DNA from: a virus
Direction: 5' to 3' (one strand)
Length of the DNA: 64,000 nt
IMG/VR virus record: IMGVR_UViG_3300021956_000014
The translations under genes and the position numbers were made by a program. The notes beneath the pieces are model-generated. The model worked only from the letters and a program-made list of their open reading frames with translations, was not told where the DNA came from and did no database searches. Within the stretch, counting starts at the first letter, position 1, and each line of letters opens with the position of its first letter. This document shows positions 1 through 26,221 of the stretch, piece after piece.

Positions 1-133
1 GCCAAAAACGCATAAAGTGACTGAGTATGGGGTGGAATATCAATCCGCGATGAGCTTGTCCGCGGTGCAGAAAAACTGTGACACATATGATAGTGATATG
101 TGTCATCACCAGAGTTGCTATAATAGGAGACAT

Positions 134-3500: not shown

Positions 3501-4608
3501 TACCAATATTTTCTGAGCCTTCCGCCATACCTTGTCTTTTTAGCCTGTCTGTGCCTTGTCTTATTAAAGTGTTTAATGTAAGTAAAGCATCTCCAGCGGC
3601 TCGTTTTTGTATACTTGGGTCTGCATCGACTGTGTCGCGCATGGCGTCATAGGCTTTTTTTAGTTTTGGTAATCCAGACTGCTCAACATCGTCAAAGTAG
3701 TCGCCCAATTCGTCAACGATGGTATCAGTCATGTCGCTACCAGCTTTTGCGCCGTCGTAGATTTCTTTGGCCACATAAAAAACTGCTTTAACTAAATCAA
3801 CATCAATGTGAATTGCCTCTGTAACACCTTGTGTACCTTTTTTCAAATAACTGGCCGCGCTGTCTATGGCATCTTGCTTGTCATCTGTGTGGTAGTCGGC
3901 TTCGGGGTTGCGGTGCCCACCTTCATAAAACTGTACCACATATTCGTTCCACTCGACATTTTTGTATACTTTAACAGCACGTTGCCCTTCTTCGTATTTG
4001 GCCAGTAGGCGCATGCCGTTGGCTGAGCCCTCTGCTACACTCGGTTCTTTTTTCTTTTGCTCATCAGCATAGGCCATTAGGCGTTCCCAGGCCGCATCGC
4101 TATCGGATTTGGCCTTATCTTGTTCTGCAGGGCTTAGTCCAGGCTTACGTGGACGATTGCTAAACTCTGCACGAGCCGATGCTGTATTTGCTCGGCGTGC
4201 TTCAGCAACACCGCGTAGTTCATCTGCAGGCCAACTCATATAACTGTCGCCATGGACATCACCGGCACGTACTACAAACACCCCAGGCTCGTCTTCATAT
4301 CCTTCGTCTTGACCAATTTCCCAACCAGCCGCCATCAGTGTTTGTTCAATTCGAGGATCTTCATTGCCGTTGTACCATTGGGCGGCAAGAAGCTTGAGCG
4401 TGTCATCGCTGAAACCATCATCGCCGCCGTCACCATCACCTGCGGGTGCAAATTCAGCCAATTGACTTTCTTTGATCAGCTGTGGCTTTTTTCTTTTGTT
4501 TTGTTGTGATAAGTCGTATAAGTTCATATTACTTTTGTCCCGGAACTGGTGCGCCAACAGCGCCAGCGGCCGTCTGTTGCATTTGTTGTTGTTTCTTTTG
4601 CTCGGCAC
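568..4608 (-). CDS. very large (1346 aa) multidomain protein, likely virion-associated/ejected; function unknown
   Basis: Single uninterrupted ORF with coiled-coil-rich C-terminal third. N-terminal 27 codons overlap the upstream gene, whose TAA stop lies 1 nt before internal Met28 (ATG 4527..4525); true start probably there. Confidence 0.5.
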   Translation of the reverse strand: MPSKRNNNKCNRRPLALLAHQFRDKSNMNLYDLSQQNKRKKPQLIKESQLAEFAPAGDGDGGDDGFSDDTLKLLAAQWYNGNEDPRIEQTLMAAGWEIGQDEGYEDEPGVFVVRAGDVHGDSYMSWPADELRGVAEARRANTASARAEFSNRPRKPGLSPAEQDKAKSDSDAAWERLMAYADEQKKKEPSVAEGSANGMRLLAKYEEGQRAVKVYKNVEWNEYVVQFYEGGHRNPEADYHTDDKQDAIDSAASYLKKGTQGVTEAIHIDVDLVKAVFYVAKEIYDGAKAGSDMTDTIVDELGDYFDDVEQSGLPKLKKAYDAMRDTVDADPSIQKRAAGDALLTLNTLIRQGTDRLKRQGMAEGSENIGNTIRQLYQQIYDQGDDALEYLNTSAPLFSQYWDQYEGDLDSIIAEVSPKNLIRIEQELKQVAGHEGMTEGAKSHSELARLAHEAYIAAVRSGNSLMADHYKKAYEKHKRLAASERKSVAKGMAEDAEPFDRERQLVKKLGQLGSMIVQNPMLWEKYSDSIDNDNIEWIIGLIQDRTGASKEEVMHLAKLFGEIGGGGGRLVDFAWAVKEGTWIDDFVKPYIEYKKKNLREFAVNEAVGGNYLYHSTQDAATAKAILQSGVFKGGKQAAQAPTDAQTKLPTVSFGRSLEYQLSGADVGRNYQVVFVIDRNALESRYKTLGTSQSKNTRGLANAKRNDFNQTQLKYLSQFDANKDNQLSKDELDAWQQQTGGISAPGNKLKTAPNDVADIYQELTHSYKTGKQGKEFEEVVPTQTGTIPWQGMLVGFYLVPGKAAAKDPELLNHPLRLEMPTPNNFVRANGSAPAEKPVLSPAEKQKQRQAGQEKSRQMAIDKAKATAPETAPAESVVKEFAPAGGGNSGDDMPMVILNYIHTHYPDIFKEFGQSTVEEVVYDLEAMGYYRPEEIKNKDLEDLVSQVEDALMKYNSDDLTESRLGKLLNEFLNGNGDGRDDGGEDPYKHPQPEHYSRSIDFFGRFEADHFDREDFDDATGVFKGYWDDDQIAYFKFDNPKRAGSDDPGMGWYYEPQNESMGKSNTPVKHRIGLTVTDPNHPMVSKRGETIQKTVRVPGEDPAKAINAAIAHYRRKGYKVHDHHYMGTVDEGITEVSLGDYYRKANMAKAVAQMGAGFARSPEEREKNLAIAAKRQQGLDRAKVRTDKFWADKAAKDAADHLEQTKTKYAGVDIDAEIAKLKPAIQRAYHEYQYGARNTYSQGKADYDRLMGQVRELQQAKELLGQHGMSEELSELSNELLGRYKKELGVRASAADRAGDYDKGHEYFKKITKATLRQGENDARRHAQREKENEMMETRLNMMRKAGYDL

Positions 4609-5227
4609 TGGCCTGCGTAACTAAATCTTTAAATTTGCCTTGTAGCTGGGGATTGGCCATGATAGGTGCTAATACTGTACCCGCAGTGGCAACTGCGCCT
4701 TTATCTCCGGGTGTCAATGGTTGCTGGTCATCTACTTTATCAAATGCTTTGACAACTTGTGCAGGATTGCTGACAGCGGCTCCGGCCGCTTTTAAACTGG
4801 CTACACCTTTTTGTAAGTTGGCTTGATCCATTTTTTCTTGTTGCGCCAACTTTTGTTGTGCGGCCTGTTGAGCAGGGTCTGGTTTTTGCTGTTGTTGTGG
4901 TGTACCGGGTTTGGTCAAATCTGTGCCCAGTGTGGGCTTGTTGGGTTGCGGCTGTTGTTGCTGTTGCGGTTGGTTGGGCTGTACCGGAGCTTCTTTAATA
5001 AAGTCTCTGTATTCACGCATCAAGTCTCTTGCGGGCGATTCCTGTAGCGCAGATTCTAAATCACGTAGAATACTTTCACCGCCAACATATTTGTCTTTGG
5101 CCGCACTGGCTGGATCTGTACCTCGCCACTTGCCTGTGTGTTTTGGACCTGTAGGTTTTTTCTTGGCGTCGGCCATTGTGCCTTCGTCAAGTGTATCTAA
5201 CTTACCTAGTAGGCCTCGCATGTCCAT
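4529..5227 (-). CDS. low-complexity Gln/Pro-rich protein
   Basis: 232 aa with PQQQQQPQPN, QQQQKPDPAQQAAQQ tracts; stop 1 nt upstream of Met28 of the giant ORF (translational coupling). Confidence 0.45.
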   Translation of the reverse strand: MDMRGLLGKLDTLDEGTMADAKKKPTGPKHTGKWRGTDPASAAKDKYVGGESILRDLESALQESPARDLMREYRDFIKEAPVQPNQPQQQQQPQPNKPTLGTDLTKPGTPQQQQKPDPAQQAAQQKLAQQEKMDQANLQKGVASLKAAGAAVSNPAQVVKAFDKVDDQQPLTPGDKGAVATAGTVLAPIMANPQLQGKFKDLVTQASAEQKKQQQMQQTAAGAVGAPVPGQK

Positions 5228-5715
5228 TAATATACGCCTTTACCAATCTTGGGCTGTTTTGTTTTCATTGCGTTACCATACTTTTTAGTGGCGGCTGATT
5301 CTTGCTTGACACGGCGTTGTGTTGGAACTGCTTCTTCCACCGGCCCAGTCGCAAATCCAGCTGATACACTGGCTCCAACACTAGCAGACTCTGCCACTAT
5401 ATCTTCAAAGCGGCGCTCTGCATCTTCAAAGGCAAACGCAGGCATTGAGCTTTTTTCTTGTTCAATGTTTTCGTAGCTTAGATACTCGTAAACAGTACGT
5501 AGATAATCGTTAGCTAACGTGATCTTCTCGCTAACCCAACCTTCTAAGTTTCCAGTTTCTTTTACACCTTGTAAAATCTTGTGTAACTTAATAGCATAAT
5601 CTGCGGCATTGTAACAATCGGCGCGGGCCATTTGCACTTCGTGGTCGCTGTGCATTTCATCGGCATCTTGTGCAATAAATGGGTTGTGTTCTACGATAAA
5701 TTCTGTTGGTTTCAT
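5227..5715 (-). CDS. hypothetical protein
   Basis: 162 aa ORF, ATG start, coding strand consistent with neighbours. Confidence 0.45.
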   Translation of the reverse strand: MKPTEFIVEHNPFIAQDADEMHSDHEVQMARADCYNAADYAIKLHKILQGVKETGNLEGWVSEKITLANDYLRTVYEYLSYENIEQEKSSMPAFAFEDAERRFEDIVAESASVGASVSAGFATGPVEEAVPTQRRVKQESAATKKYGNAMKTKQPKIGKGVY

Positions 5716-5744
5716 GTCAAAAATCCTGTTATTCTATATTTATG

Positions 5745-6023
5745 TTACACTATATTGAATACTGTATTACCAGCTGGGGGTATTCCATCTAGCTTTATTT
5801 GTTCTACAGTAAATGTGCCCAATGCTGGATCTACATTTTCTACTCTTAATCGATGCTGTCCCACCGGAGCTTCTAATATAACTGTTTCTTCAATGTAATG
5901 ACTAGAGCCCCACGTAAATGTGCGCTCCGTGATTAAGTCATTATCAACATACACACGATATCTAGGTGGATCTCCATCATAGTAACAGTAAACATCAAAT
6001 TTTAATTCTGCGTGGCGTAGCAT
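5745..6023 (-). CDS. hypothetical protein
   Basis: 92 aa ORF tightly packed between neighbours. Confidence 0.4.
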   Translation of the reverse strand: MLRHAELKFDVYCYYDGDPPRYRVYVDNDLITERTFTWGSSHYIEETVILEAPVGQHRLRVENVDPALGTFTVEQIKLDGIPPAGNTVFNIV

Positions 6024-6026
6024 ACA

Positions 6027-7004
6027 TTATCCTCTGTGTTTGAAGTACTGTACTTGACGCTCTCTTTTCTCGGCGCCGCTTCGGCTTGGGTAAGTACCTA
6101 GATTTTTTCCTGTGTGACTGACTAATCTGTAGCCACCTTTGACTTTGCGTATTGTTTCAGCAACACCACCCACCGGGCTGGTGCTGTCTACGCTATTGAT
6201 GCCATTGTAAGCATTGGCATCTTCGCTGAGGTATTTGTCTAATATTTGCTGTGCGCCACGTGGATTCTTGGGATATAAATCGCCAACAATCTCGGCTTTT
6301 TGTTTTGGGCTGGCTTTTGGCCACATGTTGCGTATTTGTGTAGCACTAGTGACGCCACTAGGCCCTGCAGGAAACTCTACAGTAGGCAAATAAGCCATGT
6401 AACCATTTTGGCTCATTGGTTGTGGATTTTTGCTGTATGGTTGTAGGTACGACGGACTTCCATCTTTCTTGACGCCGCCGGCATGCGGCGGTTCATCTCG
6501 ATCTTTCTCACTGCGAGCAAAAACCAGAACAGTTGAGTTGGGGTCGTAGTTGGCTGTGATTTCTTTGGCTTGAAATGGGCTTTTAACTTGTACAAAATGC
6601 CCCGGTGGTACACCGGCAATTTGTGCTAGGCGTGCTTTGTCAGCAATATCAAATGGTCTATTGGCCTTGTCGTTTGTGGCCGCATAGTAAATATCGGCGC
6701 CGGGAAAGGCTTTTTGTGCTGAATTGTATAGGCTAAGGTGCCCTGGGTGGAAAGGGTGAAAACCGCCAGGTAGTATGACCACAGTTTTCTGTGCTGGTTT
6801 AGCTTCAAACAATTCAAAAATAAACATAGTATTGTATTTAGCTATAAACAAAAAAGGCCCTTGCGGGCCCTTTTTAGATATTTTCCAGTAACCACAAGTA
6901 AAACGGGCTGTTAAATTTAAGCTCGTATGTACCATTGAACCCAAAATTAATACAATGTGGCAATTCTGTTGCACCCGGACTTGGAAAGTCTTGTGGAGCA
7001 TCAT
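6027..7004 (-). CDS. nucleotidyltransferase, NMN/NaMN adenylyltransferase- or cytidylyltransferase-like
   Basis: GGFHPFHPGH (GxFxPxHxGH, HxGH motif) plus C-terminal VTSATQIR (ISSTxxR-type motif); N-terminal 59 codons of the maximal ORF overlap the upstream gene and look non-coding, likely start Met60 (ATG 6827). Confidence 0.55.
   Translation of the reverse strand: MMLHKTFQVRVQQNCHIVLILGSMVHTSLNLTARFTCGYWKISKKGPQGPFLFIAKYNTMFIFELFEAKPAQKTVVILPGGFHPFHPGHLSLYNSAQKAFPGADIYYAATNDKANRPFDIADKARLAQIAGVPPGHFVQVKSPFQAKEITANYDPNSTVLVFARSEKDRDEPPHAGGVKKDGSPSYLQPYSKNPQPMSQNGYMAYLPTVEFPAGPSGVTSATQIRNMWPKASPKQKAEIVGDLYPKNPRGAQQILDKYLSEDANAYNGINSVDSTSPVGGVAETIRKVKGGYRLVSHTGKNLGTYPSRSGAEKRERQVQYFKHRG
6850..6880. 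terminator. bidirectional intrinsic terminator hairpin
   Basis: AAAAAAGGCCCttgcGGGCCCTTTTT: GC stem flanked by A-run and T-run, at the 3' end of gene 6874..7347. Confidence 0.55.
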
Positions 7005-7347
7005 ATTTGAACACGCTTAACATCTGAGTTAGTGTACCTAGTTCAATATCGTCAACTTCAATATCAATAAGATTTAACAGCATATCTTTAACAATCACAT
7101 GATTGTCTGGATCAGTGACGTCTGTAACAGTATCTTCTACTGCTTTGTTATCTAATCGAATTTTTAACACATGCTCTGCATCTTCTTCCACAGAGCAGTC
7201 AAACTCAACATATTCAACTTCATCAGAATCCTTGGTAATGTATGCATTGACACACTCTTTATCGTCAACGCTGATTATATAGTGGGGTTTCTTGTCCCAA
7301 TATGTACCGCTTAGTTTGATTTTAAAGTGTATCTTTTCCATTGACAT
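6874..7347 (-). CDS. hypothetical protein
   Basis: 157 aa ORF followed by terminator hairpin. Confidence 0.45.
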   Translation of the reverse strand: MSMEKIHFKIKLSGTYWDKKPHYIISVDDKECVNAYITKDSDEVEYVEFDCSVEEDAEHVLKIRLDNKAVEDTVTDVTDPDNHVIVKDMLLNLIDIEVDDIELGTLTQMLSVFKYDAPQDFPSPGATELPHCINFGFNGTYELKFNSPFYLWLLENI

Positions 7348-7350
7348 AAT

Positions 7351-8232
7351 TTATGCCTCCTGGGGTGCGGCCTTGGTGGCCATATTAATAGCATCACGCA
7401 ATGCGGCAGGAGCAGTTTCCGGGACTCCAGCAACTTCATTGCCAAATTTTGGCATCTTACTAAGGTCTCCGGCAAACTCGTAGTGACCGATATGGTTCAA
7501 CAGAACCTTACCATGTGCCCAAATCTCGCCGCCGATTTTAGCCCAGCGTCGGCAGAACAACCAATCCTCACTAAGATAATGTCCGCGCTCGTCAATATTG
7601 CAATCAAAGATGGAATACATCATTGGCTCGTACTGTTTACCCAATCCCACATCATCAACATACTTGCATTCTGGGTGTGCTTGGATTAGTTTTTCATATA
7701 CATGACGCTTGAACATCAAAAAGCCTGTGCCCATAGTGTCAACTGTAAAGATGTCACCTTGAATCTTTGTTTCTGGACGCAAGTTAATCACATAGTTAAC
7801 TGGCAATGCTTTTTTAGGATACAAACCACCGATTACATCTTTGTCACAGGCCATCATTTTAAGAATAGCATCCGGCTCAAAGCGAATGTCAGCATCAATA
7901 AACATAAAGTGAGTGGCTTCTTTGTTGGTCATCATTTTAGCCATTAAGTTATTGCGAGCGCGAGTAACCAAGCTCTCATTGACCATGGTATCTAGACTCC
8001 AGTTTAACCCCGCTTGTTGCGCCAATAGAATAAAACGCAAGAAGCTAGTCATGGTTGGTTCACTGACCATGCCACCATAGCAAGGAATACCAATATGTAA
8101 ATGATATTTACGGAAATCAAACGGTACACCTTGTTGTTGTGCTGGTGCTTGTGCTTGTTGTGCTCTCGCGGCCGCGGCTTTTTTTATCAAATCTACAGCG
8201 GCAGATTGATTAATCTTTTTATCTTTGCTCAT
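7351..8232 (-). CDS. putative GT-A fold glycosyltransferase
   Basis: 293 aa; HIGIPCYGG...ARNNL...FIDADIRF with DxD-type motif (IDAD), resembling family-2-like glycosyltransferases. Confidence 0.45.
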   Translation of the reverse strand: MSKDKKINQSAAVDLIKKAAAARAQQAQAPAQQQGVPFDFRKYHLHIGIPCYGGMVSEPTMTSFLRFILLAQQAGLNWSLDTMVNESLVTRARNNLMAKMMTNKEATHFMFIDADIRFEPDAILKMMACDKDVIGGLYPKKALPVNYVINLRPETKIQGDIFTVDTMGTGFLMFKRHVYEKLIQAHPECKYVDDVGLGKQYEPMMYSIFDCNIDERGHYLSEDWLFCRRWAKIGGEIWAHGKVLLNHIGHYEFAGDLSKMPKFGNEVAGVPETAPAALRDAINMATKAAPQEA

Positions 8233-8252
8233 TGATTACTTTCTTTGGTTAA

Positions 8253-8417
8253 TTATGCTTTACTAACTTCAACAACTACGCCCTGTCCTAGTAGCTCTTC
8301 GGCTACTGATGCTAGTGCAGTTAAAGTGTCAGTGCTGGCAATGTCGTGTCCGGGGTCGTCATTTTTAACTAGTTTACTAATAGTGATGACAATCACCTCT
8401 TCTTGAATCTTAGCCAT
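8253..8417 (-). CDS. small hypothetical protein (54 aa)
   Basis: Sub-threshold ORF with RBS AAGGAGAAG 5 nt before ATG; MAKIQEEVIVITISKLVKNDDPGH...; fills an otherwise empty 215-nt gap. Confidence 0.35.
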   Translation of the reverse strand: MAKIQEEVIVITISKLVKNDDPGHDIASTDTLTALASVAEELLGQGVVVEVSKA

Positions 8418-8447
8418 TGGCTTCTCCTTGAATATACAAGTATTTAT

Positions 8448-9167
8448 TTAGGTGACAACCACTGGATGAATATTTAATATACAGCCCGGATGTATTAGCT
8501 CTAAAAAGGTTGTGACTTTTTCGTCGTTGGCGTAAAACCAAATATTCCAAAAACCATCAAATTTTGAACTTAGCATTCGTTTGACACCCCCAGACACCTT
8601 GACTTCGTCTGTACCAAGTCCTTCTAAGTAGTTGAGCATCTGCTGTTTAGTAATAACATTACATCGCCCGTCACGCAATACAACCTTGTATTTGTAGGAA
8701 AAGTTTTTTTTGCGTATAATTACTCCGCTCTTAAGCAGGTTTTGTGTCTGCTGGTTGGCAGGACCGGATATGCCCAGGACAATGTGTCGGTATTTTGGGC
8801 CCAGCTGATCAACGATTGTTTTTAATTCGTTTTCAGTTTCGGCATAGAACTGTATTTCGGGTTCTTCAACACGAATCTTTACATTTGGATTATTGTCTTT
8901 TACAGCACGAATAACATGTAGAAGAGCCACATCAATCTTATCTAGGTTATGTGTGGATGCTCTGCCCCAATAGCCACCGGGATTAATCTGCCTAAAGTGG
9001 CGCCTTGCTGTAATAGCGGTTTCGTAGTCGGTGCTTTCCTGTACAATTCGGCCACCATAGACTTCTAGCCTCATACGGTACAGGTATTTTCCAAAAAATT
9101 GTTTTGTAGTCTCTTCGAATTTAACCGAATAATTTTTACTTTTCCAGTACGATATATCCATGCTCAT
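8448..9167 (-). CDS. hypothetical protein
   Basis: 239 aa ORF immediately downstream of clpA, 32-nt overlap. Confidence 0.45.
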   Translation of the reverse strand: MSMDISYWKSKNYSVKFEETTKQFFGKYLYRMRLEVYGGRIVQESTDYETAITARRHFRQINPGGYWGRASTHNLDKIDVALLHVIRAVKDNNPNVKIRVEEPEIQFYAETENELKTIVDQLGPKYRHIVLGISGPANQQTQNLLKSGVIIRKKNFSYKYKVVLRDGRCNVITKQQMLNYLEGLGTDEVKVSGGVKRMLSSKFDGFWNIWFYANDEKVTTFLELIHPGCILNIHPVVVT

Positions 9168-11415
9168 CTACAGTAGGGGGTGCTTCAATGCTAATGCGAC
9201 TGTCAAACGTAAATTCTGTTCCTGTCCAGTCAACAGTAATTGAACTATTAGGAGGTACACGCTCAAACAATATCTTTTTACTTAGCGGAACCTTAATTAA
9301 ATCGTTGATTTTACGACCCAGCGGCCTTGCGCCCATTTTGCTATCATAGCCAACTTCAGCTAAATGATCAACTGCGGCTTCAGTTAGTCTAATCTTAATA
9401 GATTTTTCACTTAGCAATTCGTTAACTTCGTTAATAAACTTGGCAACAACCTTCTTAATACTCAATTGATCGAGTTTATTAAATTTACAAATGCCATCTA
9501 GGCGGTTACGGAACTCAGGTCTGAAAAATTCCTTAACAGCCTTGTCGTCTTCACCAGTTTTTTCCTGTGTACCGAAGCCAATACTGTTGCGCTCGTTGTC
9601 GGCCGCTCCCAGGTTACTGGTTAGGATAATAATGGCATTACGTGCATCAGCTTTTTTGCCATTGCTGGATGTAACAGTACCTTCATCCATTAGCTGTAAC
9701 AAGACATTGCTGACATCTGGGTGTGCTTTTTCAATTTCGTCAAACAAGATAACAGCATTACTGTTCTTTTCTAAATCACTGATTAGTAATCCGCCACCAA
9801 GATTGCTGTCTTCGTAGCCTACATACCCCGGGGGCGCACCAATCAGCTTACTAGCTGAGTGCTTTTCTTGGTATTCACTCATATCATAACGTAATAGTTT
9901 CATCCCAAGGTTTTCGGCTAATAGTTTAGCCAATTCAGTTTTACCTGTACCAGTTGGTCCTAGGAACAAGAAACTGCCAATTGGCTTGTTAATACCTTTA
10001 AGTCCGGCACGACTAACATAGATGCGCTCAAGGATAGTATCAACAACTTGTTCTTGTCCATACAACTTAGCTTTAATGTTACCTTCTAGGTTGTCCAGAC
10101 TGCGTACAGTTTCAGCACCAATTTGATCTGCGGGTATTTTAGTAAACTTGCTCAGTGTATCAATGATATGGCTCTTGTTAACCACCCAATCTTTTTCTAC
10201 TAGTTTAGTTCTAGCACATGCGCTGTCAATTAAATCAATGGCCTTGTCGGGTAAACGCTTGTCTGTTTGATATCGTACACTGAGATCAACAGCACTATCA
10301 ATCGCTGAATCATCAATGACGCCGCCGTGAAACTCTTCAAAGTAGCCACGTAGGCCACGCAAAATGTCTTTGGCCACAGAAGGTGTTGGTTCTTCTACCG
10401 GTAGCCTATGGAAACGGCGCATTAGCGCACGATCCTTTTCAAAACTCTGTGTGTATTCTTCCCAAGTAGTTGATGCAATGACTTTAATCTGACCTTTGCT
10501 GAGTGCAGGTTTGATCATATTGCTAAAGTCCACACTACTTTGACTACCTGATCCGGCGCCCTGCATTTGATGTGCTTCATCAATGAACAAGATACACTTG
10601 CCACGTGCTATTAATGCTTCAATTACATCCTTGACCTTTTCTTCAAACTCACCGCGATATTTACTGCCTGCTAGGATACTACCAATGTCTAAGTTAAACA
10701 CAGTATAATCTAACAAATACTCAGGAACTTCTTTATTAAAGATATTTCTGGCCAGCCCCTCAGCAATGGCGGTCTTACCTACACCCGGATCGCCTACTAA
10801 CAAGATATTGCTTTTGTTGCGTTTGGCCAATACTTGTGCAATTTCATTAATTTCAAACTCTCGACCAATTACGGGATCGATGTTGCCTGCGGCGGCCGAC
10901 TCGCTAAGATTAGTACAATACTCGTCAAGGATATCGTGTCCTCGCATTTTCCTTGCGGCTCTAGCCTGTTTGGCTTCTTGATAGTTTTCGTTATAGAACT
11001 CAATTAGTTTTTGTCTATCAAGTCCGTACTTGAGCATGAAGTATGCGGCGTGGCTGTTAGTTTCGTTTGTGATACTCAAGAAGATATCAATAACTTGAAT
11101 GTGTGTACGCCCACTAAACAATACTTGAGTAAATGCACGATTAAACATACGCTCAAGAGCATGTGTTTTCTTTGGTTCACAACCATTTTCTTTGCTGACT
11201 AGATAAGTCTGCGACATTAAAAATGTGTGCAATTCAATGACCATGCTGTCAACATCAGCGCCAAAATTCTGGCAAAGCTCGTAAAATGGTTTATACAACA
11301 TAACCGCTTTGAGCAAGTGCTCTAAAGTCACATACTCGTGGTTAAGCTCTTTAGCTGACTTAATAGCCGAACTAACAATTACTTCAATTTCGGGATTTGG
11401 TTGTATAGTCATCAT
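9136..11415 (-). CDS. clpA: ClpA-type AAA+ unfoldase (ATP-dependent Clp protease ATP-binding subunit)
   Basis: 759 aa; Clp N-domain; two Walker A boxes (GDPGVGKTAIAEGLA, GPTGTGKTELAKLLA); KLIGAPPGYVGY; ERNSIGFG aligning with the ClpA IGL ClpP-docking loop; no ClpB middle domain. Confidence 0.9.
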   Translation of the reverse strand: MMTIQPNPEIEVIVSSAIKSAKELNHEYVTLEHLLKAVMLYKPFYELCQNFGADVDSMVIELHTFLMSQTYLVSKENGCEPKKTHALERMFNRAFTQVLFSGRTHIQVIDIFLSITNETNSHAAYFMLKYGLDRQKLIEFYNENYQEAKQARAARKMRGHDILDEYCTNLSESAAAGNIDPVIGREFEINEIAQVLAKRNKSNILLVGDPGVGKTAIAEGLARNIFNKEVPEYLLDYTVFNLDIGSILAGSKYRGEFEEKVKDVIEALIARGKCILFIDEAHQMQGAGSGSQSSVDFSNMIKPALSKGQIKVIASTTWEEYTQSFEKDRALMRRFHRLPVEEPTPSVAKDILRGLRGYFEEFHGGVIDDSAIDSAVDLSVRYQTDKRLPDKAIDLIDSACARTKLVEKDWVVNKSHIIDTLSKFTKIPADQIGAETVRSLDNLEGNIKAKLYGQEQVVDTILERIYVSRAGLKGINKPIGSFLFLGPTGTGKTELAKLLAENLGMKLLRYDMSEYQEKHSASKLIGAPPGYVGYEDSNLGGGLLISDLEKNSNAVILFDEIEKAHPDVSNVLLQLMDEGTVTSSNGKKADARNAIIILTSNLGAADNERNSIGFGTQEKTGEDDKAVKEFFRPEFRNRLDGICKFNKLDQLSIKKVVAKFINEVNELLSEKSIKIRLTEAAVDHLAEVGYDSKMGARPLGRKINDLIKVPLSKKILFERVPPNSSITVDWTGTEFTFDSRISIEAPPTVDEHGYIVLEK

Positions 11416-11438
11416 GTTTAAGGTATTGTTGTTCTATA

Positions 11439-11467
11439 AGTATACAGTAAAACCAGTATACCTGCAA
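11439..11467 (-). promoter_or_regulatory. sigma70-like promoter upstream of clpA
   Basis: Minus strand TTGCAG-17 nt-TATACT, about 25 nt upstream of the clpA ATG. Confidence 0.4.
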
Positions 11468-11479
11468 CCTTTAAAATAT

Positions 11480-12334
11480 TTATTGGTTAGATTGGATTTG
11501 ACGTATTAATTCTAACTGCTGTTCAGTTAAGTGTTTAGGTACACTGACTGCGATTTCAACTAACAAGTTACCGCGAACGTTATGATTCAAATGATATAGG
11601 CCTTCGCCACGCACACGCATCATGGTTCCGGGTTGTGTACCGGGTGGTACTTGCAATTCAAACATTCGACCATCTAGTCCTGTAATTTCTGTAACGCCAC
11701 CAGTGATTGCGTCAAGACAATTTATAGAGACTTTAGAGATTAAGTCAACTCCGTCTATTCTAAATCTATGGTCTGGAGTAACATTAAAAACAATATACAA
11801 ATCACCGCGAGGTAATGTGTTGAACATATTGTCCCCTAGACCTGGATACTTTATCTGTGCTCCTGCGTGTATTCCTCTTGGTACAGTTACTTCTACAGTT
11901 TCTCTATGTCCTGTTGTTGTTTGTACACTTAATGTTTTCTTTTGTTCTTGTAGTGTTTCTGCTAACGGCATTACAACTTCAACTCTAAGATCTTTGTTTT
12001 TTCTAGGATGACGCTGTCCAAAAGGACTGCCATGACCAAATGGGCCTCCAGGAAAACCAAAGCCTCTAAGAATGTCTTCCATACCCGGCGGCATTTGGTC
12101 GAAGTCGTTACCGTTTACAGTAAAACGGAACCCACCAGGATTGCGACGTTCGTTGTCATACTGTGCTCGTTTGTTTGGGTCTTCTAGTACAGCGTATGCG
12201 GCCTGTATTTCTTGAAACTTCTGTGTGTCACCACCTTTGTCCGGGTGATGTTTGCTCGCGAGACTACGATATGCTTTTTTAATTTCGTCGGCCGTTGCAT
12301 TTTCGGCAACACCTAGTGTAGCATAATGAGTCAT
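11480..12334 (-). CDS. DnaJ/CbpA-type J-domain co-chaperone
   Basis: 284 aa; N-terminal J domain (YATLGV...KKAYRSLASKHHPDKGGD, HPD motif), no Cys-rich zinc finger, C-terminal DnaJ_C-like domains: CbpA-like architecture. Confidence 0.8.
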   Translation of the reverse strand: MTHYATLGVAENATADEIKKAYRSLASKHHPDKGGDTQKFQEIQAAYAVLEDPNKRAQYDNERRNPGGFRFTVNGNDFDQMPPGMEDILRGFGFPGGPFGHGSPFGQRHPRKNKDLRVEVVMPLAETLQEQKKTLSVQTTTGHRETVEVTVPRGIHAGAQIKYPGLGDNMFNTLPRGDLYIVFNVTPDHRFRIDGVDLISKVSINCLDAITGGVTEITGLDGRMFELQVPPGTQPGTMMRVRGEGLYHLNHNVRGNLLVEIAVSVPKHLTEQQLELIRQIQSNQ

Positions 12335-12342
12335 ATTCTCTT

Positions 12343-12383
12343 ATTATAAATGAGAAACCGGATAGTGTCAAGCTATCCGGTTT
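12343..12383 (-). promoter_or_regulatory. perfect-consensus sigma70-like promoter overlapping a terminator-like hairpin
   Basis: Minus strand TTGACA-17-TATAAT ending 8 nt before the dnaJ-like ATG; -35 and spacer lie inside hairpin AAACCGGATAG(N7)CTATCCGGTTT that follows the upstream gene. Confidence 0.5.
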
Positions 12384-12398
12384 GTGAGTAATTTCTAA

Positions 12399-12614
12399 TT
12401 ACTTCTTTTTAGTACCGTCTGGTACTTTTTCACCTTCAACTTTTTTGTGGACTTTGATGGTCTTACATACCTGTTGTGGCTTTCCATCTTTACCGTTTAC
12501 TACCTTGCCGGCTTTGTCTTTTTTATCTTCACAGACTTCTTTTTTCTCACCACCGGCATAAGCAGTTGACGCAACTGCTAAACATAGTCCTGCTACAAAT
12601 ATATAATTTTTCAT
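12399..12614 (-). CDS. small secreted Lys-rich protein
   Basis: 71 aa; signal peptide MKNYIFVAGLCLAVASTAYA; mature part K/E/G-rich. Confidence 0.45.
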   Translation of the reverse strand: MKNYIFVAGLCLAVASTAYAGGEKKEVCEDKKDKAGKVVNGKDGKPQQVCKTIKVHKKVEGEKVPDGTKKK

Positions 12615-12623
12615 TTTGTTTCC

Positions 12624-13154
12624 TTAAATCAATGGTTGTGGTGTATCGGGAACTATTTTCTTTCCTGATGCAGTTGTTGCAGGTACGCTTCCAAATCCGC
12701 TTGAATCAAAGCCTGTTGATGCTGGTTGTGCTGTTTGCGTAAATCCAGTCGATCCCGCTCCAAAGCCTGAACCACTGTTAAAGCCTCCCGCTGTTGCCCC
12801 GAATCCTCCTGTTGGTGCAGGGCTAGGTGCTGTAAACCCGCTTGGTGCAGGGGTTGATGTTTGTGCTCCGCCATTGTTTGCTCCGTTAAGTTTTTCTTGT
12901 GTACGACCAAATGCCGCAATACCAAGAACTGCACCCATTGCGATATGGAATAAGCCGGCACCTTGTAAGGTTAATGGATTCCATTGTGTAATAGGACTGT
13001 GTGTTAGGGTTTGTAATAAACTCCACAAGATCGGAAATACTACCATGTCCATCATACAGACGACCATGTACATCCAACCCATCATTGGACGCCATTTACT
13101 GTTCATCCAATCTTCTTTTTTCTGTTCGCTTGCGCTTTTTCTTTCTTCTGACAT
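12624..13154 (-). CDS. membrane protein with Gly/Ser/Thr-rich FG-repeat tail
   Basis: 176 aa; two predicted TM segments then disordered tail with repeated GFG/GF motifs (SGFGAGSTGF, GFDSSGFG). Confidence 0.45.
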   Translation of the reverse strand: MSEERKSASEQKKEDWMNSKWRPMMGWMYMVVCMMDMVVFPILWSLLQTLTHSPITQWNPLTLQGAGLFHIAMGAVLGIAAFGRTQEKLNGANNGGAQTSTPAPSGFTAPSPAPTGGFGATAGGFNSGSGFGAGSTGFTQTAQPASTGFDSSGFGSVPATTASGKKIVPDTPQPLI

Positions 13155-13189
13155 GTATGGCTCCTAATCGAATTATTTTTAATATTTAG

Positions 13190-13774
13190 TTAAAACCACA
13201 GTAATAAGCCTTGGCTACTTAATAAGACCCCAATGCCTGCTACTGCAAAACTGCCCCAGAATAACGGCATGCTAACAGCAAGAATACTAGCCGATAGTAG
13301 CACGATGCTTAACTGATAGGCAGTACTTGCATATCCAATCCACGGGCTACGCAATTTAGCTTGATCACGTTCAGCTTCTAATGCACGAGCTTTGGCTAAT
13401 AAATCTTTTTTACCATCCTTGGGTTCGTTTTCGTAACGATCAATCTTTGCGGCTAACTCTTCGGCACGTTTTTTATCGCCTGCTCGCAGAGCATCATCGC
13501 GGGCATATTCAGCCATTGTTTGTTTTAAACTCTTGGCTTGATAAAAGCTGTAAGTATCGTTGGCTTTAATTGTATTGTTAAGTATAGTAGAACTTAACCC
13601 GCCGCCATACCAAGCATTAATAGCAAGCAATAATGCAAACACGTTAATAACCATACCGGCTTTGTCTTTGATCTTTGCTTCACGTTCGCTACGTGAGCCC
13701 ACCGGTGGCTTGGGTGCGTCTGGATCTTTTGGGGTTTTGTTTACTAACCCTAATACTGAATCTATTAATGCCAT
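13190..13774 (-). CDS. membrane protein (holin candidate)
   Basis: 194 aa; hydrophobic segments near residues 40-60 and two at the C-terminus; charged coiled-coil middle; position next to lysis genes. Confidence 0.35.
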   Translation of the reverse strand: MALIDSVLGLVNKTPKDPDAPKPPVGSRSEREAKIKDKAGMVINVFALLLAINAWYGGGLSSTILNNTIKANDTYSFYQAKSLKQTMAEYARDDALRAGDKKRAEELAAKIDRYENEPKDGKKDLLAKARALEAERDQAKLRSPWIGYASTAYQLSIVLLSASILAVSMPLFWGSFAVAGIGVLLSSQGLLLWF

Positions 13775-13797
13775 TTACTTCTTCCTTCTAAAAATTG

Positions 13798-13986
13798 TTA
13801 TGCTAGTTTCATTGCTATGTTGCACGCCTGTACAACATATCTGAATAATTGTTCATTGCCGGCACATTCATTTGCGGCTCTAACATCTCGTATCTCTGTC
13901 AACAGATAATCTCTCTCTTCTGCACTGATGTTACCTAGTTGACATTGTTCATTGATTGCTTGGATTTCTTGCTCTAGTGGATGCAT
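13798..13986 (-). CDS. hypothetical small protein
   Basis: 62 aa ORF in the lysis region. Confidence 0.3.
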   Translation of the reverse strand: MHPLEQEIQAINEQCQLGNISAEERDYLLTEIRDVRAANECAGNEQLFRYVVQACNIAMKLA

Positions 13987-13987
13987 A

Positions 13988-14347
13988 TTATCTTCCTTGC
14001 CATGCCGACCGTGCGGCTTCTATTCTTTGTTGGGCTGTTTTTTTGCCTAGTTCACAAAATGTTTTACTGCCGCCTTTGGCCATACGTTCAGTATGTGCCA
14101 ATAGGCCCTTCATGTTAGCGGTCTGCGGATCCTTACGCCATTCGGCATATTGTGCTAAAACTTCGGCATTGCTGTGTGCCTGAGACCAATCTGGTCGTTC
14201 ACAATCAACATGCTTGATTGCAATGTCTGTAGTTATCAAGTGGTTAAACATAACAGGATCGTGGTCACGCGGCCAATACTGTTTTAAATCTTGTATGGTT
14301 GAACAACCCGACAACAACACAACAGCAATACAGGCAAGTTTTTTCAT
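13988..14347 (-). CDS. lipoprotein
   Basis: 119 aa; lipobox LLSGC after signal peptide MKKLACIAVVLLSG-C. Confidence 0.5.
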   Translation of the reverse strand: MKKLACIAVVLLSGCSTIQDLKQYWPRDHDPVMFNHLITTDIAIKHVDCERPDWSQAHSNAEVLAQYAEWRKDPQTANMKGLLAHTERMAKGGSKTFCELGKKTAQQRIEAARSAWQGR

Positions 14348-14613
14348 TTCTTTAGATCCTCATGTATTTTCTTTTGTATTTGATACCATTCCTGCCAAGC
14401 ATCTGCTTTTACAGCACATTCATAATAGGTGCTGTAGTTTATTGTGATTGTTTTTGCTATGTCGCTTAACTTAGCTTCTTCGGATATTTTTTCTAAGTTA
14501 GGGCAACGTACTGTAGCCGCATTACTGGGAGGCTCGGGGAACTTGGTCACTACAGGCACAGAAGATGCACAGGCAGTTAACATGATAGACAATGCAATTA
14601 TCGAATATTTCAT
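14344..14613 (-). CDS. outer-membrane lipoprotein, o-spanin (Rz1-like) candidate
   Basis: 89 aa; lipobox MLTAC; Pro-rich mature N-terminus (PVVTKFPEPP); extra Cys; directly follows i-spanin-like gene with 4-nt overlap. Confidence 0.5.
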   Translation of the reverse strand: MKYSIIALSIMLTACASSVPVVTKFPEPPSNAATVRCPNLEKISEEAKLSDIAKTITINYSTYYECAVKADAWQEWYQIQKKIHEDLKK

Positions 14614-15092
14614 TTCGGTGGCTCCGCCGCATCATTTAATGCTTTGATAAATTCCTTAGGAATTTCACATTGACCGCCAGGGGCAAATTTAACATCATAC
14701 TTGACTACCTCACGGTCAACGTACTGTTTAATATATTCGGTACGTCCTTTGATATATTTGATTTTTCCGTCCATGGCCTTGGCTAGTTTGGCATTGGCTT
14801 CTTGCGACTCTGCTTCTGCTTTAGCTACTCGTGATTCTGCTTCTGCTACCCGGGCTCGCCAGTCTGCTTCTGTCTGGTAACTGCCTTTAAAATAAACTCC
14901 AGCCAACAACACAGCCGCACTTAGTAATTGTATAAAAGTTATATAAGGAGCCAACGGAGGGAACCAGCGCAATATTCTGTTGATTACAAAATAACTTAAG
15001 AATGTTGCAACCGCACCCAATATCAAAATAGCATTAACTACATGTACCAGTATTGAGTCTGGAACAAAACTTAGTAGCCACATGTTAGACAC
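14610..15092 (-). CDS. i-spanin (Rz-like) candidate with two N-terminal TM helices
   Basis: 160 aa; N-terminal hydrophobic segments then long Ala/Glu/Lys coiled coil (ARVAEAESRVAKAEAESQEANAKLAKA); overlaps endolysin 3' end. Confidence 0.45.
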   Translation of the reverse strand: MSNMWLLSFVPDSILVHVVNAILILGAVATFLSYFVINRILRWFPPLAPYITFIQLLSAAVLLAGVYFKGSYQTEADWRARVAEAESRVAKAEAESQEANAKLAKAMDGKIKYIKGRTEYIKQYVDREVVKYDVKFAPGGQCEIPKEFIKALNDAAEPPK

Positions 15093-15717
15093 CTAGTACA
15101 TGGCAAGCATGGTTGTAATGTTTGATGCGATCTTCTAAGCCAATCGTACCACCGTTGATGCGTTTGGTCAGTGTTAAGATGTCACCTTTGTCTGCCCACT
15201 GGTTTAAGTTGTTGGCTTCCCAGAACCAACAGGCTGATTGTACGCAACCTTCAAATGTAGTCAAGTGCTCGCTGGCTTCTTCTACGCTGATCTCAAGACT
15301 CTGTGCATAGCGAGTATAGTTGTCTTTGCCAGTTAACTGTATTAGGCCGCGACCGCAATATCGATATCCATCGCCGGACTCTTCTGGGCCGTTGCCCATA
15401 CGGTTGGAATAGATGCGATTTGCAATAGCCTCTTGTTTGTTGGGCATAGAGCAATAGCGTTCTGCTGTAGGCAAATCAAAATACTTTTTAAACAACTGCA
15501 CCAGTGTTGCTGGTCTGTAGTTTAAGTTTTCTTTAATGGCTTTGAAGCCACCCGACTCATGAGCACATTGTGCCAAGAAGGCCGCTAGTCGTTGTGGTGT
15601 GTTTATATCATAATCTGGGCATATTTCGCATATTGCTTCATGCCAATGCTCGATATAAGGATTACCGGGTACTATTTGTTTTAATTGGTCGACTGTAAAG
15701 TCAAAATCGAATGCCAT
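15085..15717 (-). CDS. endolysin, glycoside hydrolase family 19 (chitinase-like lysozyme)
   Basis: 210 aa; FLAQCAHESGGF...YRYCGRGLIQLTGKDNY, the GH19 catalytic Glu-containing signature found in phage endolysins. Confidence 0.85.
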   Translation of the reverse strand: MAFDFDFTVDQLKQIVPGNPYIEHWHEAICEICPDYDINTPQRLAAFLAQCAHESGGFKAIKENLNYRPATLVQLFKKYFDLPTAERYCSMPNKQEAIANRIYSNRMGNGPEESGDGYRYCGRGLIQLTGKDNYTRYAQSLEISVEEASEHLTTFEGCVQSACWFWEANNLNQWADKGDILTLTKRINGGTIGLEDRIKHYNHACHVLGV

Positions 15718-16565
15718 TGCTTGTCTCCTAGGATAGCTTCAGTATTTAGCCTTCTTTGGATTAAGAATTGTTGCCACTTTATTAATTGGTCTGGTGTTAG
15801 TAAACTGTAAGCTCGACGATGTATGCTGGCTGTTAATAATTTTTTATCAGTTAACATCCTATTGTAATGTTCGTCAAAATTATCAACATCAGAATCTGCA
15901 ATGTTACAACAACTATAATATTGGGTTTTATTATACAACCGCTCGTACGTGCCGTGCCTAGACAATACAAAACTAGAATATAGATGAAACTCTGTAATTA
16001 GGTGTGGGTACCTGACATTGGTTTGAAAAAATTCTATAAAATCGCCGTAACTGTTTATTAGTTCTTTAACTGTTGCAGTATGGAACACAAAAGGAACACC
16101 TTGTGGTCCTATAACCACTGGCATTTCTACACTATAATATTTTTCAAGGAATTCTCTGCTACTGTCAAATACAGGGAACACTGGCACAGTACCGGCGGTA
16201 ACACGTTCTTGGTCGTCAAATAGTTTTGTTAAATCTAGCGGTTGTATAAACCAAGTTTTAGCATCTAGACTTATGCTCCATGGACTTTCGGCTTGCCCGG
16301 CCGCAAGCAATTTACAAAGCTGTTGGTTTTCCCATCCATTGATTCTACTTACGTAGTTCCAGTAACTATAAGGGATGATTTTAACTTTTGATTGGTGCGT
16401 ACCCCACCAGGCGGTGTCTATGAGATCTACAACATCATCCCAATCATTGACAACAACGTAAATGTTGCCAATGTCTGACTGCTGTGTATATAGTTCTATA
16501 GATCTTGCTTGAACTTGTAAGAAGTTTAATTCTTCTTGAAATACAATAGTAACTAAGTCAATCAT
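15681..16565 (-). CDS. hypothetical protein
   Basis: 294 aa ORF; no motif I can assign. Confidence 0.45.
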   Translation of the reverse strand: MIDLVTIVFQEELNFLQVQARSIELYTQQSDIGNIYVVVNDWDDVVDLIDTAWWGTHQSKVKIIPYSYWNYVSRINGWENQQLCKLLAAGQAESPWSISLDAKTWFIQPLDLTKLFDDQERVTAGTVPVFPVFDSSREFLEKYYSVEMPVVIGPQGVPFVFHTATVKELINSYGDFIEFFQTNVRYPHLITEFHLYSSFVLSRHGTYERLYNKTQYYSCCNIADSDVDNFDEHYNRMLTDKKLLTASIHRRAYSLLTPDQLIKWQQFLIQRRLNTEAILGDKQWHSILTLQSTN

Positions 16566-16570
16566 TGAGA

Positions 16571-17152
16571 TTAACGAATACCAGCCGCAATCCTTAGACT
16601 TTCTGTATATTCGTTTTTAGGAGCTTTGGTTTTAACTTTAATACCGGCCGCATTACGCATTGCGTCTAGGTCTCGATCATCACCTTTTTCTTTGTCTTCT
16701 TCTTTGTCCTTGTGCCCGAACTTTTGATTGTATTCTTCGGGGGTACTGGGAATTAAACTACGTAAACTGTCGACGTCCAGTTTATGATCTTCTTGGCTGG
16801 TATAGTAACGAACACGCCATTCTTCGGGCTCTTGTTCAGTGACATTCATAATGTCACCCATCATTTCATACAGATCTCGAGCCAAGTTAGGTGTGCGGTC
16901 TGCTTCTATAAAAACAATGTAATCACCGTCATCCATTTCGCCTGAACTGACGTCAGCATCAATAACCCACTCATAACCCTTTTCAATAAAGTTAACTAGG
17001 TCTTGTGCTGGTTCTTTGCCTTTGACTTTAAAACTAATAACCACGGTATCTTCGTCTGCACCCAACTTGCTTTTAAACTCGTCAATGTGCAATTCGTTGT
17101 GAATTAGTCTTTTTAAATCGCCGTGTTCTAGGCCTTCAAATAGTTGTTTCAT
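16571..17152 (-). CDS. acidic hypothetical protein
   Basis: 193 aa, strongly acidic (DKEEDKEKGDDRDLD). Confidence 0.45.
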   Translation of the reverse strand: MKQLFEGLEHGDLKRLIHNELHIDEFKSKLGADEDTVVISFKVKGKEPAQDLVNFIEKGYEWVIDADVSSGEMDDGDYIVFIEADRTPNLARDLYEMMGDIMNVTEQEPEEWRVRYYTSQEDHKLDVDSLRSLIPSTPEEYNQKFGHKDKEEDKEKGDDRDLDAMRNAAGIKVKTKAPKNEYTESLRIAAGIR

Positions 17153-17154
17153 AG

Positions 17155-17730
17155 TTATGCCGCCGGTGCTGGTGCAGGTGCTCCTGCGGGTGCTGGTGCA
17201 GGTGCGGCAGGTGCTGGTGCTCCTGCGGCCTGACCTTGTGTTTCAATTTCGTCGGCGCCAGTTTCGTAAGCTGATTCAACGTCTTCGGCTTCTACGCTTT
17301 CGCTTTCTAATTCTAAAGATCCACGTTCAATTTCAAACATTAATTTCTTGGGCATAGTAATTTCTACTAGCCATACAGGAACTTTACCAAGTCTTGGAAC
17401 TTTGGTTCCGGGCTTGAAGTCTGTGGGCTCTTTAACTTTAACGGGATATTCTAATACGTCTTTGGTCCACTTAATTTCGCAGTCGTATTCCATTAAACGC
17501 TCTGCGCCACGTGGATCGGGCATTAGTTTGTGTGGCCACATAAATGTACAAGTAACAAAATATTTTTCGTATTTTGGTCCTACAACTAATTCACCTGCTT
17601 TCCAATTTTTAAACACATACATGTCTAGTTCGTCAAGCACACGCTCAAAATCCATGAGGGTGCTTAAAGCACTATCGCTCATATAGATATCTTTGGTGTT
17701 TTGTATTACATCTTTAATATGATTGGCCAT
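17155..17730 (-). CDS. hypothetical protein with Ala/Pro-repeat C-terminal tail
   Basis: 191 aa ending AAGAPAPAAPAPAPAGAPAPAPAA, encoded by tandem GGTGCTGGTGCAGGTGC-like DNA repeats at 17157-17230. Confidence 0.45.
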   Translation of the reverse strand: MANHIKDVIQNTKDIYMSDSALSTLMDFERVLDELDMYVFKNWKAGELVVGPKYEKYFVTCTFMWPHKLMPDPRGAERLMEYDCEIKWTKDVLEYPVKVKEPTDFKPGTKVPRLGKVPVWLVEITMPKKLMFEIERGSLELESESVEAEDVESAYETGADEIETQGQAAGAPAPAAPAPAPAGAPAPAPAA

Positions 17731-17770
17731 AATTCATTCCGCTTTTGTATTATTTAGCCTAATAATACAT

Positions 17771-17980
17771 CTACGGTTGTTGTCTTTGCCATGAAATTTT
17801 GTTCCATACACGCTCATGTATCCAAAATAGGAATATTTTAGTCATTATTTCAGTAAGCGCGATTCCACTGGCTAACAACGCTTGTCCGGTGATAAGCCAA
17901 CTAATAAGAAATGTGTCAATAGTCCCAGTTACCCGCCAACTAACCGCTTTTGCTAAACTGCGTAAAGGTGTATCAACCAT
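17771..17980 (-). CDS. small membrane protein
   Basis: 69 aa with two hydrophobic helices. Confidence 0.3.
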   Translation of the reverse strand: MVDTPLRSLAKAVSWRVTGTIDTFLISWLITGQALLASGIALTEIMTKIFLFWIHERVWNKISWQRQQP

Positions 17981-20199: not shown

Positions 20200-20278
20200 G
20201 TAGATTTCCTTTGATTAAATACTTATAGAAAAAATTGCACTTGGTGCAAATTTATTTATCAAATAGGAAAAATTTTTA

Positions 20279-21001: not shown

Positions 21002-21003
21002 GA

Positions 21004-22919: not shown

Positions 22920-22931
22920 TATAAGTATTGG

Positions 22932-24478: not shown

Positions 24479-24502
24479 TTTATTAAATCCTTTTCATCCA
24501 TG

Positions 24503-25272: not shown

Positions 25273-25273
25273 A

Positions 25274-26212: not shown

Positions 26213-26221
26213 GTTATCTCC

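Follow-up and report, generated by a model that had tools for sequence, protein, structure and literature searches.

Chaperone genes of described jumbo phages and the locus studied here

Genes of the bacterial chaperone and protease machinery, namely ClpA, ClpX, ClpP, ClpS, DnaJ, Hsp10 and Hsp20, have already been described in jumbo phages (Attai et al. 2018, PMC6102473; Iyer et al. 2021, PMC7824862). Agrobacterium phage Atu_ph07 encodes ClpX, ClpA, ClpB, ClpP (gp676), ClpS (gp708) and DnaJ (Attai et al. 2018, PMC6102473), and in the moraphages, an aquatic jumbo-phage lineage, ClpA is near-core and both DnaJ and DnaK are also carried (PMC12619734). A 2026 review of jumbo-phage biology makes no mention of phage ClpA, DnaJ or GroES homologues. 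Here we analyse such a set in a 64,000-nucleotide stretch of viral DNA from IMG/VR record IMGVR_UViG_3300021956_000014 (hereafter the window), in which a clpA gene follows a dnaJ-like gene and a Cpn10/GroES-like gene lies farther away. The set as such is not new, since it is already annotated in cultured jumbo phages; our addition is incremental and consists of a three-gene operon with a clade-specific third gene, a single consensus promoter, and a defined clpP slot that is empty here. We consider it reasonably probable that the phage ClpA docks on ClpP, probably that of the host, alongside phage co-chaperones for the host DnaK and GroEL. The three genes at the centre of the analysis are the following:

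11480..12334, minus strand: dnaJ-like gene, class-B (type II) J-domain protein of 284 residues, with a J domain, a glycine/phenylalanine (G/F)-rich linker and DnaJ C-terminal domains (CTD) I/II
9136..11415, minus strand: clpA, ClpA-type class-I Hsp100 unfoldase of 759 residues, with an N-domain and D1 and D2 AAA+ rings, without an M-domain
8448..9161, minus strand: orf237, clade-specific protein of 237 residues, its start overlapping the 3' end of clpA by 26 nucleotides (nt)

The closest cultured counterparts are Atu_ph07 and Sinorhizobium phage Phosso. In Atu_ph07, as in the window, dnaJ (gp293) immediately precedes clpA (gp292) on the same strand. The order is kept in Phosso, except that a peptide deformylase gene (L164 5433..5951) stands between its dnaJ-like gene and clpA and thereby connects the pair, in Phosso, with the processing of nascent chains. 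The J-proteins of both phages are likewise zinc-finger-less class-B proteins, 32% identical over their full length to that of the window, and their ClpAs share the M-domain-less architecture and the IGF docking tripeptide at 40-44% identity; the jumbo-phage context is common to all. Nevertheless, both phages are distant (at most 44% identity), and they encode ClpP, ClpS, ClpX and ClpB, none of which was seen in the ~74 kilobases (kb) that we searched, comprising the 64-kb window and 9.9 kb beyond its position 1, out of a genome of likely ~350 kb.

Among cellular systems, E. coli ClpA (ClpAP/ClpS; 1KSF, 6W1Z) has the same domain order, the same ATPase and pore-loop motifs and a docking loop (IGL) in the same position, whereas the window clpA shares its operon with a J-protein and orf237 and not with clpS. 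Similarly, Thermus thermophilus DnaJ2 and E. coli CbpA possess a J domain with HPD, a G/F linker, CTD I/II and no zinc-finger domain; the window J-protein differs from them in being phage-encoded, co-transcribed with clpA and devoid of a cbpM-like partner gene. A further comparison is offered by Rki of phage RB43, cited in PMC12619734 as a J-domain-only protein acting on host DnaK. Rki and the window J-protein are both phage-encoded and proposed or shown to engage host DnaK, but the latter is a full-length class-B protein with an ancient link to clpA.

The phage ClpA

The protein was recognized by the Pfam families Clp_N, AAA, AAA_lid_9, AAA_2 and ClpB_D2-small, and its residues 7-729 aligned end to end and gap-free with residues 3-734 of E. 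coli ClpA (E=3e-179, ~41% identity). The initial annotation, which had called a full-length ClpA with both AAA+ modules and an IGF loop, was thus accurate down to the gene coordinates. TIGR02639 (ClpA) was the best NCBIfam family with 820.2 bits, followed by ClpB at 645 bits, and the protein matched phrog_4871 (3e-239). The spacing between the D1 lid and the D2 Walker A motif is 98 residues, close to the 101 of E. coli ClpA and unlike the 158 of ClpC, which indicates that the M-domain is absent.

Conservation was assessed on the best 80 of at least 493 IMG/VR viral contigs with a related ClpA, in an alignment of 81 sequences; for other features of the locus, the number of related loci compared is 76, 77, 79 or 80. 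The Walker A/B motifs, sensor-1/-2 residues and arginine fingers of D1 and D2 are canonical and at least 90% conserved. The pore loops, KYR of D1 (in AGSKYRGEFE) and GYVG of D2 (in GAPPGYVGY), are each conserved to the same extent in the clade. The loss of pore-loop or sensor residues that would mark a pseudo-ATPase was therefore not seen, and the motifs argue that ClpA, a double-ring AAA+ unfoldase whose lineage is old and specific to phages, is most likely catalytically competent.

The putative ClpP-docking loop carries IGF at residues 612-614 (nt 9574..9582), with SIGF aligned to SIGL of E. coli ClpA. Of the 81 sequences, 77 have IGF in this place, two IGM, one IGI and one IGL, and the tripeptide is hence hydrophobic in all 81; IGF is also present in the ClpAs of the cultured phages Atu_ph07, Phosso and PA 30-3. 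Moreover, positions E23, E28, T81 and R86 (E. coli numbering), which we take to be ClpS contacts in the ClpA-N/ClpS structures and treat as a lead and not as a test, are conserved in 68-81 of the 81 sequences. Judged from these alignments, the docking loop and the presumed ClpS-contact positions appear to be under purifying selection.

The initial annotation had asked whether the ClpA is host-derived, and the relatedness of the protein answers against it. The window ClpA is 63-94% identical to its best 80 viral relatives, on contigs of up to 374 kb, versus ~41% to bacterial ClpA. Its identity to the phage ClpAs of Phosso, Atu_ph07 and the PA5oct-like Pseudomonas phages is 40-44%. A scan of GTDB species genomes, limited to two peptide patterns and so not an exhaustive phylogeny, gave at most 42% identity among the matches listed, which were mostly ClpC. 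A rough neighbour-joining tree separated the phage ClpAs, as one cluster, from bacterial ClpA and ClpC. This grouping, the fact that the same phages head the ClpA and the DnaJ match lists, and the adjacency of the two genes in Atu_ph07 and Phosso point to the dnaJ-clpA pair as an old phage module and not a recent host capture.

The J-domain protein

Pfam placed DnaJ at residues 2-60 (3.1e-23) and DnaJ_C at residues 117-266 (1.4e-34). The HPD motif (residues 30-32, nt 12239..12247) therefore stands in a genuine J domain, and it is invariant in the 77 clade members. The linker that follows is G/F-rich (PGGFRF...GFGFPGGPFGHGSPFG), and the CxxCxGxG zinc finger is absent from the window protein and from all 77 clade sequences (0/77). 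These results agree with the earlier reading of the gene as a J-domain protein with HPD and DnaJ C-terminal domains but without a zinc finger. Full-length structural counterparts are Thermus DnaJ2 (6psi, 4j80) and the Klebsiella CbpA-like protein 3lz8, and the top phage matches are the DnaJs of Atu_ph07 and Phosso, the phages that also lead the ClpA list. The protein scored below the equivalog cut-offs of both TIGR02349 (210.8 vs 377.2) and the CbpA model NF007618 (125.4 vs 403).

Operon structure and promoter

The dnaJ-like gene and clpA are adjacent in 79 of 80 related loci, with a median of 5 nt between the end of the former and the start of the latter, and the complete dnaJ-clpA-orf237 unit is conserved in ~76-79 of the 80 viral contigs. 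The gene order kept across the 80 loci is holin-like gene, small open reading frame (ORF), dnaJ, clpA, orf237 and a 293-residue glycosyltransferase-like gene. Scans of the window for promoters and terminator-like hairpins gave the following elements:

12343..12371, minus strand: sigma70-type consensus promoter TTGACA-17-TATAAT, matching at 12/12 positions, 8 nt upstream of the dnaJ-like start codon region
27518..27546, minus strand: perfect sigma70 promoter from the consensus scan
55847..55875, minus strand: perfect sigma70 promoter from the consensus scan
62264..62293, minus strand: perfect sigma70 promoter from the consensus scan
12355..12383, minus strand: GC-rich hairpin of 11 base pairs whose loop contains the -35 hexamer and which precedes a T-rich tail, from the terminator-like scan

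The four perfect TTGACA-N16-18-TATAAT sites are all on the coding strand, compared with 0.05 expected by chance, and some transcription units of the phage appear to be read by the host sigma70 RNA polymerase. Strong promoters of their own had been assigned to both dnaJ and clpA. The former claim stands, with the perfect match in the window and, in 49 of the 77 related loci compared, a near-consensus promoter ahead of dnaJ. The latter does not: TTGCAG-17-TATACT exists in the sequence upstream of clpA, but its -35 hexamer matches at 3/6 positions, the promoter scanner did not report it, and a promoter-like site precedes clpA in one of 79 related loci. Since there is one promoter, upstream of dnaJ, together with the 5-nt median gap and the overlap of orf237 with clpA, the genes are better described as a single operon than as two independently promoted genes. 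On this sequence evidence, clpA is predicted to have no promoter of its own and to be the second gene of a dnaJ-clpA-orf237 operon.

The hairpin that overlaps the promoter has a folding ΔG of -15.1 kcal/mol. It is kept in 34 of the 49 promoter-bearing loci, with compensatory changes in the stem, e.g. CCGGATAG/CTATCCGG vs GCCGGTAG/CTACCGGC. It is probably the terminator of the upstream small-ORF and holin-like genes; alternatively, it may be a regulatory stem-loop.

Directly upstream of the operon, at 12624..13154 and 13190..13774 (minus strand), we observed genes for a holin-like protein with three transmembrane segments (GTA_holin_3TM) and a DUF4337 protein. A GH19 endolysin-like ORF and an Rz1-like LysC ORF lie somewhere within 13798..31790, and the chaperone operon may border lysis genes.

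The third gene, orf237

The start of orf237 is conserved (MDISYW) and corresponds to M3 of a 239-residue ORF, and the gene overlaps the clpA stop in all 76 related loci in which it was compared. The protein had no Pfam or PHROG match, and no sequence homologue was found in cultured phages, nor downstream of clpA in Atu_ph07 or Phosso. Its structure was modelled confidently and consists of ferredoxin-like modules. In the viral structure library, the model matched only uncharacterised proteins of uncultured Caudovirales (template-modelling (TM) score 0.84) and, weakly, one Atu_ph07 protein (TM 0.35). The strict translational coupling to clpA makes orf237 a candidate partner of ClpA, be it an adaptor, a regulator or a substrate.

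The Cpn10-like co-chaperonin

The third member of the proposed set is encoded outside the operon:

32185..32607, minus strand: Cpn10/GroES-gp31-type co-chaperonin homologue of 140 residues, with an N-terminal extension and an acidic C-terminal tail

Pfam PF00166 recognized the protein above its cut-off (27.6 vs 21.1 bits), and it matched the gp31-type phrog_931 'head morphogenesis' (5e-13). There are 1617 homologues, many of them named GroES by the Joint Genome Institute (JGI). An AlphaFold model (predicted local distance difference test (pLDDT) 75) retrieved with Foldseek, as its top four PDB matches, GroES 8wuw, T4 gp31 1g31, GroES 4pko and human Hsp10 4pj1, with probabilities of 0.99-1.00, and the assignment of a Cpn10-like gene to this position is thereby confirmed. 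T4 gp31 and GroES share the Cpn10 β-barrel fold with the window protein but are shorter, at 111 and ~97 residues, whereas the window protein has a 20-residue N-terminal extension and an acidic tail; sequence similarity to GroES is weak (E=0.006). The segment SSGIYLL aligns with the GroES mobile-loop region and supplies a hydrophobic I-Y-L; its pLDDT of 57-65 is expected of a flexible loop. The three genes had been grouped as one chaperone/unfoldase set. All three are real and intact, but the GroES-like gene is ~20 kb from dnaJ-clpA-orf237 and does not belong to the operon.

Directly upstream of the GroES-like region, a 174-residue ORF at 33097..33621 (minus strand) matches no more than a segment of DNA polymerase III alpha (Pfam DNA_pol3_alpha; phrog_11127 'DNA polymerase'), and may represent a polymerase gene that is split or fragmented.

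Distribution of ClpP, ClpS and DnaK

The initial annotation saw no ClpS, ClpP or DnaK in the window, and our searches bear this out: by tblastn and Pfam scans of ~100 ORFs, none of ClpP, ClpS, DnaK, GrpE, GroEL and Hsp20 was found there. It had further proposed to look for clpP, clpS and dnaK in the rest of the genome; the 9.9-kb extension beyond window position 1 contained none of the three, and relatives variably carry clpP and dnaK. Neither ClpP nor ClpS was encoded within 10 kb on either side of clpA in the 80 loci.

An alternative to the use of host ClpP is a self-contained phage ClpA-ClpP-ClpS system of the kind present in Atu_ph07, Phosso and the PA5oct-type phages, with clpP and clpS located outside the 74 kb and no hijack of the host. 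We regard this as possible but on balance doubtful. All three cultured phage groups of this ClpA lineage encode ClpS and a ClpP that is 46-64% identical to that of E. coli (tblastn; Atu_ph07, Phosso and all PA5oct-like phages). In addition, a ClpP resembling that of Atu_ph07 is encoded on more than 563 IMG/VR viral contigs, on many of which its neighbours are homologues of window genes, and about a fifth of the expected genome is visible to us. Synteny with relatives nonetheless defines a place where clpP would be expected, and there it is missing:

59140..59151, minus strand: empty clpP slot, the junction of a 271-residue-protein gene (59146..59961) and a DNA ligase gene (57850..59145), which abut

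By tblastn synteny, ~22 related contigs have the order 271-residue homologue, ClpP (51-72% identical to Atu_ph07 ClpP), ligase (loci L262, L264, L266, L269, L273-276, L292-294, L298-299, L311, L315 and L324-328). The eight closest relatives (L250-L257), whose 271-residue protein is 77-95% identical to that of the window, have no ClpP within 6 kb of this gene. In these eight contigs neither ClpP nor ligase adjoins the 271-residue gene, which shows that the region is mosaic. The empty slot, the eight relatives and the absence of ClpP and ClpS around clpA all count against a self-contained system. As to the co-occurrence of ClpA and ClpP on one IMG/VR contig, none of the best 80 contigs for ClpA recurred among the best 80 for ClpP or for the 271-residue gene.

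A dnaK gene is located 6-9 kb upstream of clpA in five relatives (L019, L025, L031, L043 and L044), and the nucleotide-binding domain of its product is 73-75% identical to that of E. coli DnaK. The host may accordingly be a proteobacterium, and Hsp70 seems to be carried by some clade members and not by others. Within the family, clpP and dnaK are thus variable accessories.

Proposed mechanism and alternative explanations

The analysis shows that the genes are intact and their motifs conserved, how the operon is built, to which lineage it belongs and how ClpP, ClpS and DnaK are distributed in relatives; from this we infer the partners, substrates and expression timing of the scheme that follows. 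Host sigma70 RNA polymerase would transcribe dnaJ-clpA-orf237 from the consensus promoter that overlaps the upstream terminator. The phage ClpA would then form a ClpAP protease with ClpP. A ClpAP protease is the most likely assembly given the apparent purifying selection on the docking loop and the ClpS-contact positions, and host ClpP is the probable partner because the clpP slot of relatives is empty here. The diverged N-domain of ClpA may redirect unfolding and degradation onto substrates chosen by the phage. The co-transcribed class-B J-protein would recruit Hsp70, i.e. host DnaK, to phage clients, a few relatives encoding a DnaK of their own. Finally, the Cpn10/gp31-like protein could cap host GroEL for the folding of large phage structural proteins, as T4 gp31 does. 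The earlier idea that the phage hijacks host proteostasis is accordingly plausible as far as host ClpP is concerned, but it is not established, as every cultured phage group with this ClpA lineage has its own ClpP and ClpS.

Several observations weigh against this scheme or temper it. The ~74 kb searched are a part of a likely ~350-kb genome, and a phage clpP or clpS could lie elsewhere, as all cultured relatives have one. We found no experimental work on any phage ClpA in the literature; the PA5oct omics paper and the PhageExpressionAtlas likewise hold no data on phage Clp expression. The ClpA score lies under the TIGR02639 equivalog cut-off (820.2 vs 993.15 bits), and we accordingly assign the window ClpA, by its sequence, to a divergent lineage outside the curated equivalogs. 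Its N-domain is 27% identical to that of E. coli ClpA, so adaptor and substrate specificity may differ. The mobile loop of the GroES-like protein was modelled at low confidence. Lastly, the tight coupling to a J-protein, which is foreign to bacterial clpA loci, could point to a ClpP-independent chaperone role.

This last point leads to a second alternative, which we consider unlikely, and less likely than a self-contained Clp system: ClpA may act mainly as a ClpP-independent remodelling or disaggregating unfoldase that works with the J-protein and DnaK, as a phage bi-chaperone system, to assemble or activate phage complexes, with orf237 as a client or regulator. Bacterial clpA is normally paired with clpS and not with dnaJ, which we count in favour of such a role, as we do the strict retention of the dnaJ-clpA linkage across phages whose ClpAs are only ~40% identical. 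P1 RepA is activated by E. coli ClpA on its own as well as by DnaK/DnaJ, and Wickner and colleagues reportedly described in 1994 a ClpP-independent chaperone activity of ClpA on RepA, which also speaks for it. However, a docking tripeptide that is hydrophobic in 81 of 81 sequences, and IGF in three cultured-phage ClpAs, would be needless without ClpP, and this ClpA lacks the M-domain, the part that couples ClpB to DnaK. The empty clpP slot and the absence of ClpP from the ~74 kb are compatible with a ClpP-free enzyme, but relatives co-encode ClpP and ClpS. The authors of the Atu_ph07 study group ClpB and DnaJ as aggregate-clearing chaperones (PMC6102473), which again favours the ClpP-independent role.

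We give still less credence to a J-protein-coupled ClpA machine, in which the J-protein, with or without DnaK, would choose clients and pass them on to ClpA, and orf237 would be a new type of adaptor or regulator replacing ClpS. If true, it would constitute a direct link between Hsp70 targeting and a Clp protease, which is not known in bacteria.

Recent capture of host heat-shock genes (as a moron or auxiliary genes), or contamination of the viral bin with host DNA, in either case without a phage-specific function, is very improbable: the window does contain other host-like stress genes (ferritin, Fe/Mn superoxide dismutase (SOD), IscA-like, IF-1, PhoH and SPFH) and moraphage DnaK and DnaJ were recently transferred from hosts (PMC12619734), but ClpA is ~41-42% identical to the best bacterial ClpAs found vs 63-94% in the viral best 80 of at least 493 and clusters with phage ClpAs, the J-protein has its best phage matches in Atu_ph07 and Phosso, the flanking genes are conserved and phage-specific, and the GC content of the window is uniform at ~42%.

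Our preferred reading, a phage ClpA docking on ClpP, refines known biology and does not overturn it. It matters in that dnaJ-clpA emerges as an ancient, tightly coupled operon in an environmental phage clade of at least 493 contigs. The gain and loss of clpP and dnaK in the family offer a natural comparison on whether a phage ClpA is served by host or phage ClpP. The same comparison bears on the substrates of ClpA, which could be intermediates of phage assembly or host proteins with defence or housekeeping functions.

Phage clade and other genes of the window

The window belongs to the genome of a jumbo phage whose clade is large, uncultivated and remotely related to Atu_ph07 and Phosso. The phage context assumed from the outset was borne out, the nearest kin being IMG/VR viral contigs of up to 374 kb and the two cultured jumbo phages. 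Nearly all genes are on one strand and many are ORFans; the GC content is ~42% throughout, and no tRNAs were found in the window. Phage-type genes include a T4-type ligase, tail-fibre-like proteins, PhoH, MazG, the holin-like gene and lysis genes. Megablast against the INPHARED phages gave no DNA-level match to the region, and no identical protein was on record for ClpA or for the last ORF of the window.

Moraphages have genomes of at most 307 kb, predicted Bacteroidota hosts, and DnaJ and DnaK acquired recently from hosts (PMC12619734). The window phage is probably not a moraphage, since its relatives include contigs of up to 374 kb against the 307-kb maximum and their DnaK is of proteobacterial type and not of Bacteroidota origin.

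The metagenome contig ena:ERZ27251979:k141_435251 (73,759 bp) is 100% identical to window 1..10571. The 9.9 kb beyond window position 1 come from the same contig (L330 10439..20438) and encode a fatty-acid desaturase, a family-B DNA polymerase and a methyltransferase. The window reaches ~4.4 kb past the other end of this contig, and hence derives from a different, longer assembly.

We also observed a host-like stress and housekeeping set, consisting of a ferritin/Dps-like protein (134..571), an Fe/Mn superoxide dismutase, an IscA-like Fe-S assembly protein and IF-1. The set also comprises PhoH, MazG, SPFH/Band 7, a MazE-like antitoxin and a WYL_2 protein. Apart from ferritin, the families of this set were placed by the bulk Pfam scan to the ORF batches 134..31790 or 32609..63910. 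Two homologues of TctC/Bug-family periplasmic solute receptors, unusual in a phage, are encoded at 19243..20199 (minus strand) and by a second ORF within 134..31790. Such receptors are typical of Betaproteobacteria, and the two homologues may hint at the host.

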